NCBI GenBank assembly: GCA_964460615.1
Contig: CAYWPX010000001.1
Location: forward strand, 49,826-113,825
DNA: 64,000 nucleotides
DNA from: an uncultured Planctomycetia bacterium
GTDB lineage: Bacteria; Omnitrophota; Gorgyraeia; CAYWPX01
Direction of reading: 5' to 3'
This document shows, piece by piece, positions 45,333-50,335 of this stretch; the first letter of the stretch is position 1; the number at the start of each line of letters is the position of its first letter. A program made the position numbers and the translations under genes. The notes beneath the pieces were generated by a model. The model was not told where the DNA came from. It ran no database searches and saw nothing but the letters and a program-made list of their open reading frames with translations.

Positions 45333-46739
45333 ATGCATATACTTTTAATTTCGCCTCCAAAGGATAATATCGTCACAACGACTCTCCCCGAAAAGATCAA
45401 TAAAGAGCGCGGGTATAATCCGCCGCTCGGGTTGTTGTATCTGGCTTCTTATATAAATAAAAATTCAAGTCACAAGGTGAGCGTTATAGATTCCGAGGTA
45501 GAAGAGCTCACTTATCCCATGCTTAAAGAGCGCATCGAGTCAGCTAAACCTGACCTGGTAGGGATCCAGGTCCTTACATTTACCCTTATAGACAGCCTTA
45601 AGGTAGCCGAATTAGTTAAGGAGATATCCAAAGATATCCCTGTAGTTTTCGGCGGCCCGCATGTAACGGTATTCCCGCGGGAAAGTATAAGTTATGATGA
45701 TGTTGACTATATTGTCAGAGGTGAGGGCGAATATTCTTTTAAAAGCCTGATCGATAATCTCAGTGATCCTAAAGCGCTTTTAAATATTAAAGGGATCGGT
45801 TTTAAAGAGAATGGAAATGTTACCATAACTGAGGAGCCTGATTTTATAGAGGATCTCAATAGCCTTCCGATCCCGGACAGGACCCTTACGCCTTATGGGA
45901 AATATTATTCGCTTATTTCCAAAAATTTCCCGATCACTACCATAATGACGAGCCGCGGATGCCCCTATAACTGTATTTTCTGCGAAAGGATGGGAAAGAA
46001 ATTCAGGGCCAAGTCCCCCGAGAAAGTGCTTGAGGAGATTGAGGATTGCCTGAGGCTTGGTATAAAAGAGATATTTTTTCATGACGATACATTTACGATA
46101 GACAAGAAGAGGGTTTACGCTATATGCGACCTTATTGAAAAGAGAAAACTTGAGTTTGAATGGGACGCCAGAGCAAGGGTTGATACTATTGATTATGATC
46201 TTTTGGCAAGAATGAGGAAGGCGGGCCTCAAAAGGATCAGTTTCGGCGTTGAATCCGGCAACCCCAGGATCCTTAAAAACTTAAGAAAAGGCATTACTAT
46301 CGAGCAGGTTGAGAAGGCATTCAGTTATGCCAGAAGTCTTAAGATAGTGACCCTTGCTGATTTTATGATAGGGTCACCCGGAGAGACAAGAGAGGATATA
46401 AATGAGACGATCAGTTTTGCAAAAAAGATCAAAGCCGATTATGTTCAGTTTTCGGTGACAACGCCGTATCCCGGGACAGATCTATATAAGGAGGCTTTAG
46501 TAAGAGGGATAATAAGCAATGATGTTTGGAAAGAATTTGCCGAGCAGCCCAAAGCTGATTTTAAACCGCCCTTATGGACTGAAAATTTTAAAAGAGAGGA
46601 GCTTATTGAGCTTCTTAACTTTTGTTATAAAAAATTCTATATATCATGGGACTTTTTACTTAAGGAAATGTTTAGTATCAGGTCTTTCAGAGAACTGGGG
46701 AATAAATTTAAGGCAGGATTGAAATTAATGAAAAGATAA
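45333..46739 (+). CDS. cobalamin-binding radical SAM protein, class B, paralog 5
   Basis: HILLISPP...PPLGLLYLASYI B12-domain, then GCPYNCIFC. 468 aa. Confidence 0.8.
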   Translation: MHILLISPPKDNIVTTTLPEKINKERGYNPPLGLLYLASYINKNSSHKVSVIDSEVEELTYPMLKERIESAKPDLVGIQVLTFTLIDSLKVAELVKEISKDIPVVFGGPHVTVFPRESISYDDVDYIVRGEGEYSFKSLIDNLSDPKALLNIKGIGFKENGNVTITEEPDFIEDLNSLPIPDRTLTPYGKYYSLISKNFPITTIMTSRGCPYNCIFCERMGKKFRAKSPEKVLEEIEDCLRLGIKEIFFHDDTFTIDKKRVYAICDLIEKRKLEFEWDARARVDTIDYDLLARMRKAGLKRISFGVESGNPRILKNLRKGITIEQVEKAFSYARSLKIVTLADFMIGSPGETREDINETISFAKKIKADYVQFSVTTPYPGTDLYKEALVRGIISNDVWKEFAEQPKADFKPPLWTENFKREELIELLNFCYKKFYISWDFLLKEMFSIRSFRELGNKFKAGLKLMKR

Positions 46740-46744
46740 TGAAT

Positions 46745-46814
46745 TAATCTGGACTAAGACCAATCAAAAGATAGGGGATTAATCTGGACTAGGACCATTC
46801 AAAAGATAGGGGAT
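46745..46814. repeat. 35-bp tandem direct repeat, 2 copies with 2 mismatches, each copy ending in an AGGGGAT Shine-Dalgarno-like element
   Basis: taatctggactaagaccaatcaaaagataggggat followed by taatctggactaggaccattcaaaagataggggat, read directly. It ends 5 nt before the ATG at 46820. Confidence 0.75.
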
Positions 46815-46819
46815 TAAAC

Positions 46820-47725
46820 ATGGAAAATGATGTAGATGTAAGCGTAGTACTTGCCGTATATAACGAAGAGGACTCTGTCGCGAAAGAGATATCTATAATT
46901 AAAGATGCGCTTTCAAGATCCAGGTATAAATATGAGATTATCGTTATTGATGACGCATCCACTGATAATACGCCAAAAATTATTAGTTCCATAGATGGCA
47001 TCAGGATTATTACACACCGAAGAAATTTGGGCTCAGGAGGTTCAAGAAAATCAGGGACATTGGCGGCAAGGGGCGAAGTGGTAGTATGGACCGATGCCGA
47101 CCTTACCTATCCGAATGAACTTATACCGGCCCTTGTCGATCAGCTAAAAAAGGGAAATTACTCCCAGATTGTTGGCGCAAGGCTTCAGGAAGCTGGTACG
47201 GTCAAGCTTTTGAGGGCGCCGGCAAAATTCATATTAAGGAAACTTGCCTCATTTTTGGCAAAGACCGACATACCCGACCTTAATTCAGGGCTCAGGGCAT
47301 TCTATAAAAAAGATGCTATGAACTTTATCTATCTTGTGCCGAATGGTTTTTCATGCGTATCTACAATGACGCTGGCATTTTTATGCAACGGCCTTGAGGT
47401 TGGATATATGGATATCGAGTACAAAGAGCGCGTAGGTAAATCAAAGTTCCATCCTATTAAGGATACTTATAATTATTTTCTTCAGATAATAAGGATGATA
47501 ACATATTTTGAGCCTATAAGGATATTCGTTCCTCTGTCTATGTTTGTTTTCGGCGTGACATTCATTAAGAATATAATAGACCTGATACTCACAAAAAACA
47601 CCCAGGAGTCTGATATAGTCGGCTATTTCATTGCTTTTATAATTTTTGCCATAGGGCTTTTGGCGGATCTTATAGTTGTATCCAATAAGAGGTTCTATTC
47701 AAACCGGAAGGGGCAGGGGGAATAA
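46820..47725 (+). CDS. family 2 glycosyltransferase, polyprenol-phosphate sugar synthase type (GtrB/DPM1-like) with C-terminal TM helices
   Basis: VSVVLAVYNEEDSV...IIVIDDASTDNT is the GT2 N-terminus. The C-terminal 80 aa are hydrophobic, as in GtrB/ArnC. 301 aa. Confidence 0.7.
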   Translation: MENDVDVSVVLAVYNEEDSVAKEISIIKDALSRSRYKYEIIVIDDASTDNTPKIISSIDGIRIITHRRNLGSGGSRKSGTLAARGEVVVWTDADLTYPNELIPALVDQLKKGNYSQIVGARLQEAGTVKLLRAPAKFILRKLASFLAKTDIPDLNSGLRAFYKKDAMNFIYLVPNGFSCVSTMTLAFLCNGLEVGYMDIEYKERVGKSKFHPIKDTYNYFLQIIRMITYFEPIRIFVPLSMFVFGVTFIKNIIDLILTKNTQESDIVGYFIAFIIFAIGLLADLIVVSNKRFYSNRKGQGE

Positions 47726-48627
47726 TGGGTACAAGTCCTTCCAAAAAGTGCAATATCTGCGGCACTAGCGACCATTGCAAAACCGAATTTAGGTACAACA
47801 GCGTAGTTGTCGACAAATGCACCTTGTGTAATTTGTATTTTGTGACGACTACTCCGGATAAGGCCGCAATGGAAAAATCATACAAGGAAGACATGTATGA
47901 TAATTATTGGAAATATGACGGAGGATTTTACAAAAAACACTGGGAAGAGATGGAGAGCTACGAATCAAAATTTATTGAAGACCTTGAGCTTGAAGGCGAA
48001 AATATCAATAGCTTGCTGCCAAAAAGAGGTCGTTTGCTTGATTTTGGCTGCTTTAAGGGGAACTTCTGTAATTTTATGAAGCAAAAAGGCTGGGAAGTGA
48101 CCGGAGTGGATATATCAAAAGAGGCGATCGATTATGGGAAAAATAAGCTAGGCCTTGATCTATATTGCGGAGAACTTGAAAAAGTAAATTTTTCTAAAAA
48201 TAGTTTTGATCTCATTACTATGTGGGGTGTAATAGAGCATCTGCCGGATCCAAGGCGGATCATAGGCGAACTTAAAGCGTTATTGAAGCATCAGGGGTTA
48301 ATGGTCATCAAGACTCAAAGCCAGAATAGCCTTTTAACCTTGATTGGAGCGCTTATTTATAAGCTAAGTTTTGGTAGGATATATTCTCATCTTGAGTTTT
48401 TTTACAGTTTTGAGCATTTATACAGATTCAGCCCGGTGACTCTGGAAAAGCTTCTGGCGTCGGAAGGGTTTAAGGTGATCAAGATAAACTATAGCTCTGC
48501 TTACATTGCTCAATTTGCCTCTGATAAAGCAAAATGGTATATAAAACTACCGCTTGGTATAATTCAGAAACTTTCCCGGCTTTTGAATAAACAGGACAAA
48601 ATGACAGTTTTTGCATTAAAAGAATGA
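47725..48627 (+). CDS. class I SAM-dependent methyltransferase with N-terminal Cys4 zinc ribbon
   Basis: CNICGTSDHC...CTLCNLYF, then LLDFGCFKGNF (motif I) and LITMWGVIEHL. 300 aa. Confidence 0.65.
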   Translation: MGTSPSKKCNICGTSDHCKTEFRYNSVVVDKCTLCNLYFVTTTPDKAAMEKSYKEDMYDNYWKYDGGFYKKHWEEMESYESKFIEDLELEGENINSLLPKRGRLLDFGCFKGNFCNFMKQKGWEVTGVDISKEAIDYGKNKLGLDLYCGELEKVNFSKNSFDLITMWGVIEHLPDPRRIIGELKALLKHQGLMVIKTQSQNSLLTLIGALIYKLSFGRIYSHLEFFYSFEHLYRFSPVTLEKLLASEGFKVIKINYSSAYIAQFASDKAKWYIKLPLGIIQKLSRLLNKQDKMTVFALKE

Positions 48628-48676
48628 TTTCTTTTTTGAGTTGATCGTTGTTTGGGGTATCCGGAAACTAAATTCT

Positions 48677-50335
48677 ATGAAAAAAATATTATATTTTTCA
48701 TTATTTGTTACTTTTGTGCTTTCGATCTATGGACTTGATTGGGGCCTTCCTTCAAGGTGGTGTATAGACGAACCAGTTGCAAGGGCGGTAGGGATGATGG
48801 CGTCCAAAAGCTTAATTCCTGAGGGCGATCTATTGCATCCGACCTTTCATTATTTTATCCTCATTCTTTTTATTGCCCCGTTTTTATTGTTTTTGAAGCT
48901 CACTGCTTACCCGCTTGCGCTTGTTAAAAGCGCGGCATCAGTTTCCTGGATCCATCTTGCTACAGTTGACCCCAATTTCCCCCAGATGCTTTATCTGGTG
49001 GCAAGATTTTCATCGGTTGTATTTGCGCTTTTAATAATTCTATTAACTTACAAGTTAGCAAGTTCATGCTATTCCAAAAAAGCGGGGTTTTTTGGCGCGT
49101 TATATTTAAGTGTAACGATGGGGTTTATCTCCGAGGCGCATAAGTCGACCAGTTCAATATTTCTGGTTTTCATGCTGATGTTGACTATCTTTTCATGTAT
49201 TTACTATGTGAACAAAAAAAGCTTTTATAGATTTATAGTTCCCTTTTTTCTTGGCGGATTAACAGTGGCTACGAAGTTTAACGGCGGGATCGTCATCTTG
49301 CCATTGGCATTCTATCTATTTACAATTCTTAAAGAGCCTGATGGCGGAAATACAAGGAACTTATTTTTCGTTAAGGGTTTGTTTTTATCGGGGTTGATGT
49401 TTTTGGCGGGGTTTTTTGCCGGTTTTCCGGGGTTGCTGGTTAATTTACCGGACTATATATCTGCTATGGATTATTATAAGACTAGATATGTCCCTGCGGA
49501 GACAGGGAATGCAGTGCAGTTATTTATTTCAGGGATTCTGGGTTATCTCGTAACTTTAAAAGATTTTTATGGGATCTTATTATTTTTCTTAGTTATAGCT
49601 GGGTTTATTTTGGCGATCTTCAGGCTGAGGAATAACTTTGCTTTAAAATTGATATTTATTACCGTAATTCCTTACTATTTGGCATTTTCTTTTATTCCAA
49701 AGCCATTTGAAGCTAAATATATAATATTGATCACGCCTTTAATCCTAGTCATTAGCTCTTCATTGATAGAGTATACGGGAGGCTTAAACAAAATACTTAA
49801 AAGATCCGTAAACGTTTTTTTTGTCTTAATCTGGATCGTATCATTTTATTATACTTTATGCTGTGACAGGATCTATACTACCTACGACCTTAGATATGAA
49901 TGTACCAAATGGATCGAAGACAATATTCCTAAGGACAAAAAGATCATTATAGCCGGACATCCGGAGTGGGTGATACATACCAGGTTATTTAAGGACCGTG
50001 AAATACTGCTTTTAAATACTAAAGAAGATAATTTTAATCAGGCGTATAACAGGCTTTATAAAGAAGGATCGGTCTACCAGGTTAGCTTAAATGATGCCCT
50101 CAAGGTGAAGAAGGAGTTGAGCGGCTCGCATGACAATATAATTATTTACCCGGTTTTTATTTATTCAGACAGGCTTAAGATCTTCCAAAAAGTAGAAACC
50201 AAAGACGACGTTGGCATTGACTTTAGCAAGCAAAAAGTAGTCAAGGAGTTCAAAAAAAGCTATAATTTCTTCTGGAACCCCAATCTGGGGGGTTACGAAC
50301 CGCAGAAGATAGTTATTCTTACAGGGGACAAATGA
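48677..50335 (+). CDS. GT-C fold membrane glycosyltransferase (PMT/ArnT-like, GT39/GT83 family); likely start at ATG 48677 (MKKIL) rather than the track start 48641
   Basis: About 12 TM segments, then an about 180 aa C-terminal soluble domain. N-terminal loop DWGLPSRWCIDEP. It is paired with the upstream GtrB-like GT2. Confidence 0.5.
   Translation: MKKILYFSLFVTFVLSIYGLDWGLPSRWCIDEPVARAVGMMASKSLIPEGDLLHPTFHYFILILFIAPFLLFLKLTAYPLALVKSAASVSWIHLATVDPNFPQMLYLVARFSSVVFALLIILLTYKLASSCYSKKAGFFGALYLSVTMGFISEAHKSTSSIFLVFMLMLTIFSCIYYVNKKSFYRFIVPFFLGGLTVATKFNGGIVILPLAFYLFTILKEPDGGNTRNLFFVKGLFLSGLMFLAGFFAGFPGLLVNLPDYISAMDYYKTRYVPAETGNAVQLFISGILGYLVTLKDFYGILLFFLVIAGFILAIFRLRNNFALKLIFITVIPYYLAFSFIPKPFEAKYIILITPLILVISSSLIEYTGGLNKILKRSVNVFFVLIWIVSFYYTLCCDRIYTTYDLRYECTKWIEDNIPKDKKIIIAGHPEWVIHTRLFKDREILLLNTKEDNFNQAYNRLYKEGSVYQVSLNDALKVKKELSGSHDNIIIYPVFIYSDRLKIFQKVETKDDVGIDFSKQKVVKEFKKSYNFFWNPNLGGYEPQKIVILTGDK

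Follow-up and report, generated by a model that had tools for sequence, protein, structure and literature searches.

A 35-nt tandem array between a radical SAM gene and a GT2 glycosyltransferase gene as the probable fossil of two junction duplications

Three imperfect 35-nt units that lie between the body of a B12-binding radical SAM (rSAM) gene and a GT2 glycosyltransferase gene are best explained as a molecular fossil left by short tandem duplications that struck the rSAM-GT2 junction twice in succession, a reading that we hold with a probability of roughly 0.78. It is carried by the three-unit anatomy of the array, by the homology of the unit to the 3' end of the rSAM gene, by an rSAM-to-GT2 gap of 80 nt that equals 10 + 2 x 35 nt, and by the short gap at the same junction in relatives; from these we infer slippage as the mechanism, the order of the two events and the neutrality of the outcome. 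The sequence-only reading of the window (the whole 64-kb stretch of DNA that was analysed) had noticed a tandem duplication with the ribosome-binding site (RBS) of the GT2 gene and had proposed functional roles for it. The duplication stands, and the functional readings gained no support; that reading had also missed the derivation of the unit from the rSAM gene and the presence of a third, older unit. The features on which the argument depends are as follows.

45333-46739, + strand: B12-binding radical SAM gene, 468 aa (Pfam Radical_SAM, E 5.5e-29; B12-binding, E 1e-21)
46716-46750, + strand: unit A, GGATTGAAATTAATGAAAAGATAATGAATTAATCT, composed of GGATTGAAATTAATGAAAAGATAA (functional GLKLMKR plus stop) and then the tail TGAATTAATCT, in which the Shine-Dalgarno (SD) element has decayed
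46751-46785, + strand: unit B, GGACTAAGACCAATCAAAAGATAGGGGATTAATCT, composed of GGACTAAGACCAATCAAAAGATAG (fossil GLRPIKR plus stop) and then GGGATTAATCT, with an orphan SD
46786-46820, + strand: unit C, GGACTAGGACCATTCAAAAGATAGGGGATTAAACA, composed of GGACTAGGACCATTCAAAAGATAG (fossil GLGPFKR plus stop) and then GGGATTAAACA, with the working SD and, at its last position, the A of the GT2 start codon ATG
46741-46747, + strand: GAATTAA, first of three short direct repeats 35 nt apart, read from the sequence
46776-46782 and 46811-46817, + strand: GGATTAA, second and third of the short direct repeats
46773-46778, + strand: orphan Shine-Dalgarno-like AGGGGA, canonical start codon absent downstream
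46808-46813, + strand: Shine-Dalgarno AGGGGA of the GT2 gene, 6 nt 5' of the ATG at 46820
46820-47725, + strand: GT2 glycosyltransferase gene, 301 aa (Pfam Glycos_transf_2, E 2.1e-28)

A densely packed surface-glycan biosynthesis cluster, coded on a single strand, makes up the window. The window is tiled by 57 ORFs of at least 150 aa, all of them on the + strand and most of them overlapping or separated by less than 40 nt, and the roughly one half of these ORFs that were annotated include nucleotide-sugar enzymes, RmlA/B/D-like enzymes, UDP-glucose dehydrogenases, a DegT aminotransferase, AsnB and methyltransferases, as well as GT1, GT2, GT4 and PMT_2 glycosyltransferases, an MBOAT acyltransferase and a Wzx-like flippase. 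No tRNA or rRNA genes were found in the window. Gaps within operons are all 36 nt or shorter, with the rSAM-GT2 gap as the sole exception; four larger gaps of 138-448 nt, after positions 620, 2780, 9780 and 60637, look like operon boundaries. Two gene calls near the array deserve mention in their own right. The start of the PMT_2 gene at 48641-50335 is ambiguous between TTG at 48641 (564 aa) and a position 36 nt later (552 aa), the later start being the gene call on an identical Logan contig (L001 4858, which is window position 48677). A 70-aa antisense ORF at 46789-47001 (- strand), which overlaps the GT2 start and ends within unit C, is probably spurious.

The 35-mer TTAATCTGGACTAAGACCAATCAAAAGATAGGGGA occurs first at 46744-46778 and again at 46779-46813, where it carries two mismatches (33/35 identical; A at 46757 versus G at 46792, and A at 46763 versus T at 46798). 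These are the two copies and the identity that the sequence-only reading had reported, and its statements that the duplication carries the RBS of the GT2 gene at 46820 and that each copy contains a Shine-Dalgarno element are borne out by the sequence, by TRF and by the Pfam matches: AGGGGA is present in both copies, and since the second lies 6 nt ahead of the ATG at 46820, that copy of the motif is the GT2 SD. TRF places the array at 46727-46817 with period 35, 2.6 copies and a score of 140; because the 24 further TRF rows for the window are all very small (scores of 30-44, each at most 29 nt), the description of this array as the only tandem repeat in the 64 kb is essentially correct. Other searches of the window agree. 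The 35-mer has no match outside the array (0 expected from shuffles), the array alone matches when the 35-mer and both of its halves are searched at up to 3 mismatches, and a comparison of the full 64 kb with itself at period 35 found nothing outside the array reaching 22/35.

A repeat search located a third, older unit upstream in the same register, at 46716-46750, where it overlaps the 3' end of the rSAM gene. This unit A consists of the final seven rSAM codons and the stop (24 nt), followed by 11 nt. Each unit ends its frame at the same offset, with TAA at 46737 in A, TAG at 46772 in B and TAG at 46807 in C. Identity in the unit register is 26/35 between A and B, 31/35 between B and C and 22/35 between A and C, the B-C value of 31/35 corresponding to 33/35 in the register used above. 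The copies are 6-26% diverged, and the longest exact repeat within the array is 19 nt. The tail of unit A, TAATGAATTAA, lacks an SD, and units B and C retain one, in TAGGGGATTAA. Since the unit reproduces the closing codons and stop of the rSAM gene, and since a third unit of the same kind is present, the array is a duplicated gene junction.

Relatives support this identification. We compared nine distinct contigs on which an rSAM orthologue (61-71% aa identity) has a GT2 gene directly next to it. The stop-to-start gaps in these nine syntenic relatives are -1, 9, 9, 10, 12, 12, 13, 16 and 26 nt, the last of which shrinks to 14 nt if an in-frame upstream ATG is used, and their GGAG or GAGG SD starts immediately 3' of the rSAM stop. 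Taking two units out of the window's junction leaves TAG-GGGATTAAAC-ATG, an architecture like that of the relatives. The gene ends on either side also correspond: the rSAM C-terminus KAGLKLMKR-stop agrees with the relatives' KAGLKL[LF]K[KR]-stop, and the GT2 N-terminus MENDVDVSVV aligns with their MPDKTLDVSI. Furthermore, when the opening 24 nt of units B and C are compared with the final 24 nt of seven rSAM orthologues, a mean of 13.6/24 positions agree, against a null of 6.85 +/- 1.8; among random 24-mers taken from the window, just 0.015% score as high. Unit A is closer to the orthologue 3' ends than units B and C are, at 16.1/24. A paralogous rSAM 3' end was considered as the source of units B and C and rejected, since no other ORF in the window ends similarly.

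One relative (L087, from Logan SRR22388239, rSAM 70% aa identity) carries a small duplication of its own at the rSAM-GT2 junction. This is a 7-nt tandem duplication, GAGATAA followed by GAGATAA (L087:4401-4414), which takes in the rSAM stop, so that its gap of 16 nt is 9 + 7. The slip is independent of the window's array and lies at the same boundary, and it indicates that small slips recur there. No rSAM relative above 71% aa identity was found by protein search of the searched collections. Locus scans of genomes and metagenomes returned almost only relatives at 53% or below, without GT2 synteny; the contig of their single 67% match ends ahead of the junction. With the nearest relative at 71% aa identity, the one-unit and two-unit intermediates are reconstructed stages that would have preceded the present array. 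The closest relatives come from groundwater metagenomes.

The wider family of the rSAM gene shows a different distribution. Homologues at about 46-54% identity (L007-L171) are scattered over very different lineages, including Patescibacteria, DPANN archaea (Woesearchaeota, Iainarchaeum, Aenigmatarchaeota), Brocadiia, Omnitrophota, Nitrospirota and Chloroflexota, and a GT2 gene is almost never found downstream of them. This pattern suggests that the rSAM gene has spread widely by horizontal transfer, apart from the GT2 module. Among the closer relatives, four (L003, L005, L087 and L091) have a further B12-rSAM gene, located two genes downstream of GT2. Two further homologues, P0012 and P0021 (66% and 59% identity to the query, respectively), each have a longest contig of 75,274 nt, which suggests two paralogous rSAM modules on one contig.

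Short tandem duplication by slipped-strand mispairing or microhomology-mediated replication slippage is an established mutational mechanism, and the array likely arose in this way, short direct repeats having served as the sites of replication slippage or of unequal exchange. The ancestral junction would have read roughly ...GGA YTR AAA TTA NTN AAA AGA TAG-GGGATTAAAC-ATG, with the SD straight after the stop and about 10 nt between stop and start, an arrangement still seen in living relatives. In an older event (A versus B, 26/35), a copy would have been made of about 35 nt that ran from the final 7 codons through the stop and the SD region. Thereafter the upstream copy, A, would have gone on encoding the C-terminus and stop and lost its useless SD (TAGGGGATTAA to TAATGAATTAA), and the downstream copy would have retained the SD for GT2 as its pseudo-codons drifted from AAA TTA towards AGA CCA. 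A younger duplication, between the [GA]ATTAA motifs 35 nt apart (starting at 46741, 46776 and 46811), would then have produced units B and C, which appear to have gained 2 substitutions since. In the present sequence the drifted pseudo-codons are AGA CCA in unit B and GGA CCA in unit C.

GAATTAA/GGATTAA is a candidate microhomology for the younger slippage event, a role proposed from its position. Short direct repeats are thus present at the boundary of the younger duplication, and the older boundary is no longer resolvable. From a unit ending in ACATGG it is 36 nt, not 35, to the next GGA, so the older event also requires a 1-nt indel or a slightly shifted boundary. An alternative history, in which a large duplication was followed by a deletion, would give an equal end state; it is less parsimonious, and the exact 35-nt register favours the simpler history of two short duplications.

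Across the array, redundant parts have decayed and needed parts have been kept, unit A holding the orthologue-like C-terminus and units B and C holding the SD. Both genes survive because the first unit retains the stop and the last retains the SD. The oldest orphan SD, in unit A, has decayed, which speaks against selective maintenance of orphan SDs at this locus. Purifying selection may nonetheless have acted on unit B, the younger pair differing at only 2/35 positions. Overall, we take the array to be neutral, harmless filler, a view argued from the absence of the signals considered below.

As a slippage product the array is typical in several respects. Its copies stand head-to-tail, the unit matches adjacent unique sequence, [GA]ATTAA occurs at the boundaries, the single-copy state is present in relatives, and there is a second independent small duplication in L087. 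It differs from the typical case in that the array spans a gene boundary precisely and in that two rounds of different age are preserved.

The consequence that we consider likely is a change in how GT2 translation begins. An intergenic distance of about 20 nt nearly abolishes termination-reinitiation in E. coli and Haloferax volcanii (Huber et al. 2023, PMC10666635; review PMC12548453). The relatives' rSAM-GT2 junctions, with gaps of -1 to about 16 nt and an SD after or overlapping the stop, show the classical architecture of coupled junctions; the reconstructed 10-nt ancestor fits this class as well, and the window's junction has left it, its 80-nt stop-start distance lying outside the roughly 10-20 nt by which coupled junctions are recognized and within which the relatives fall. 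With the relatives in the coupled range and the spacer far beyond about 20 nt, translation of GT2 would likely be uncoupled from rSAM termination and would start de novo at the unit C SD instead.

Loss of coupling makes some compensation conceivable, since such loss is expected at 80 nt (PMC10666635), and the extra unit could have been kept for an effect of its own on GT2 translation, as a leader. The orphan SD could serve as a ribosome standby or decoy site, or it could open a non-canonical mini-cistron that insulates GT2 initiation in the manner of a 'bicistronic design'. An intact AGGGGA does lie 35 nt upstream of the real SD, and a frame is open from 46758 to a TAA at 46815-46817, just short of the ATG; within it a mini-cistron of 11 codons can be drawn from AUC at 46782 to UAA at 46817, ending 2 nt before the GT2 AUG. 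However, no ATG, GTG or TTG is present in 46740-46819, and AUC, the sole candidate start, is a poor codon at a poor spacing, 3 nt past the SD. The older orphan SD has decayed in unit A, and no such leader is present in any relative compared. The sequence-only reading had suggested comparing RBS accessibility with one versus two copies; the predicted unpaired probability of the SD (partition function) is 0.59 and 0.52, respectively, and 0.62 with three units, which is to say unchanged. We therefore regard a retained translational leader as improbable. A broader version, in which the junction is non-neutral because the extra unit was kept after coupling broke, either as an insulating leader (standby site or mini-cistron) or as regulator-binding palindromes, strikes us as distinctly improbable. 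If it were true, the glycosyltransferase would gain its own expression set-point inside a 60-kb operon.

Paired regulator sites were another proposal, in the form of two GGACT-A-RGACC palindromes 35 bp apart or of a CsrA-type leader with multiple GGA motifs overlapping the SD. The partial palindrome noticed by the sequence-only reading does exist: GGACTAAGACC (GGACT-A-AGACC in B) forms 4/5 complementary pairs. It is weak, however, since by our own calculation about 1.6% of random 11-mers are equally palindromic, and at up to 3 mismatches GGACTARGACC has 3 matches in the 64 kb versus 1.7 expected, two of which are the array itself, so that elsewhere the motif stays at chance level. Noted post hoc, the palindrome sites at 46751-46761 and 46786-46796 arise from three substitutions common to B and C (A to G, TT to CC) in GGAYTRAAATT; the palindrome is probably chance, and it could hint at a binding site. 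Six GGA occur in 86 nt versus 1.6 expected, but this excess is a direct by-product of the duplication, and hairpins presenting GGA were not found in the folds.

Folding and family searches likewise gave no sign of a riboregulator, which had also been proposed. Fold z-scores were -0.70 for the 161-nt leader, -0.95 for the 80-nt spacer and -0.34 for the spacer plus start, none of them significant, and the single-unit folds (-3.8 and -1.8 kcal/mol; z = +0.16 and +1.71) contain no stable stem-loop. Rfam returned no match in the whole window at gathering level, and at E up to 10 only chance-level matches (E > 1) in 46500-47000. As to an operator or binding-site pair, the halves of the unit do not recur in the window, no promoter-like or terminator-like site was found in the spacer, and no regulator gene was identified in the annotated parts of the window. 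Together these results make paired regulator sites very improbable.

Surface-structure genes are a typical home of phase-variable contingency loci, and the array resembles contingency repeats in being a tandem array within a surface-glycan cluster, beside a glycosyltransferase gene. A copy-number-variable switch, as raised by the sequence-only reading, would work by slippage of units that changes GT2 expression and hence surface glycan structure, and copy number has indeed changed at least twice in the history of the array. Contingency repeats differ from what is seen here, where the units are few (just 2-3 copies), imperfect (6-26% diverged, with a longest exact repeat of 19 nt), long (35 nt) and outside both ORF and promoter spacer. 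The array sits between the stop and the SD, and the number of units therefore alters neither a reading frame nor a promoter spacer; nor does predicted SD accessibility depend on it. Copy-number polymorphism was not seen among three assemblies, possibly from the same or related samples, in which the array is identical. A phase-variable switch is accordingly highly improbable. Overall, nothing that we found points to a role in regulation, switching or binding.

A generic dispersed intergenic repeat (REP/BIME/MITE-like) that stands here twice by chance is barely credible, its intergenic position alone speaking for it, whereas no further copy was found in the window, in 185,579 GTDB species genomes (0 matches to a 31-nt degenerate pattern) or in JGI metagenome contigs (0 matches to a 28-nt junction pattern), no stable hairpin forms, and the unit is homologous to the adjacent gene's 3' end. 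Like REP/BIME elements, the array is located between co-transcribed genes; unlike them, it has no palindromic hairpin and no dispersed copies were found, and its unit comes from a local gene 3' end. The TAACTGA repeats of marine Beggiatoaceae, as far as the source describes them, are intergenic heptamer direct repeats with 169 sets across one genome, for which a post-transcriptional role was proposed (PMC4679880). On that description the array shares with them the intergenic position of direct repeats, and it differs in occupying one locus with a 35-nt unit derived from a neighbouring gene.

The remaining alternative, equally hard to credit, is that an assembler doubled a single real copy. The window does come from a metagenome-type assembly, and one of the supporting contigs (L172, a SPAdes-style contig found by 90% cluster look-up) has only about 2x coverage. 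However, over 6.9 kb, array included, the window and a Logan contig of SRR12487046 agree at every base (100% identity), and in the ENA contig L172 (ERZ4216102; window 45710-47768, L172:1-2046) the array is base-for-base identical. The three assemblies thus share an identical array, and they may stem from the same or related samples. L172 differs from the window by T-to-C at 46616 and by a cluster of mismatches beside a 10-N scaffold gap near 46349-46396, the latter of which looks like low-coverage assembly noise. In addition, the copies differ at 2 positions, the longest exact repeat of 19 nt is below usual assembly k-mer sizes, and the older unit A gives the array a long history. As far as testable, this is a real, non-artefactual tandem array.

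Read as the remnant of two junction duplications, the array adds one more case to a well-known mutational phenomenon and is in that sense ordinary, with little significance for biology at large. For genome scanning, it shows that a conspicuous 'RBS duplication' upstream of a surface-glycan gene can be fully explicable by its own origin, and such scars can be tested for quickly by setting the repeat unit against the 3' end of the preceding gene. For the genes concerned, it offers a clean, datable case in which slippage at a gene boundary lengthened an intercistronic spacer, damaged neither gene and probably uncoupled the translation of the two neighbours.
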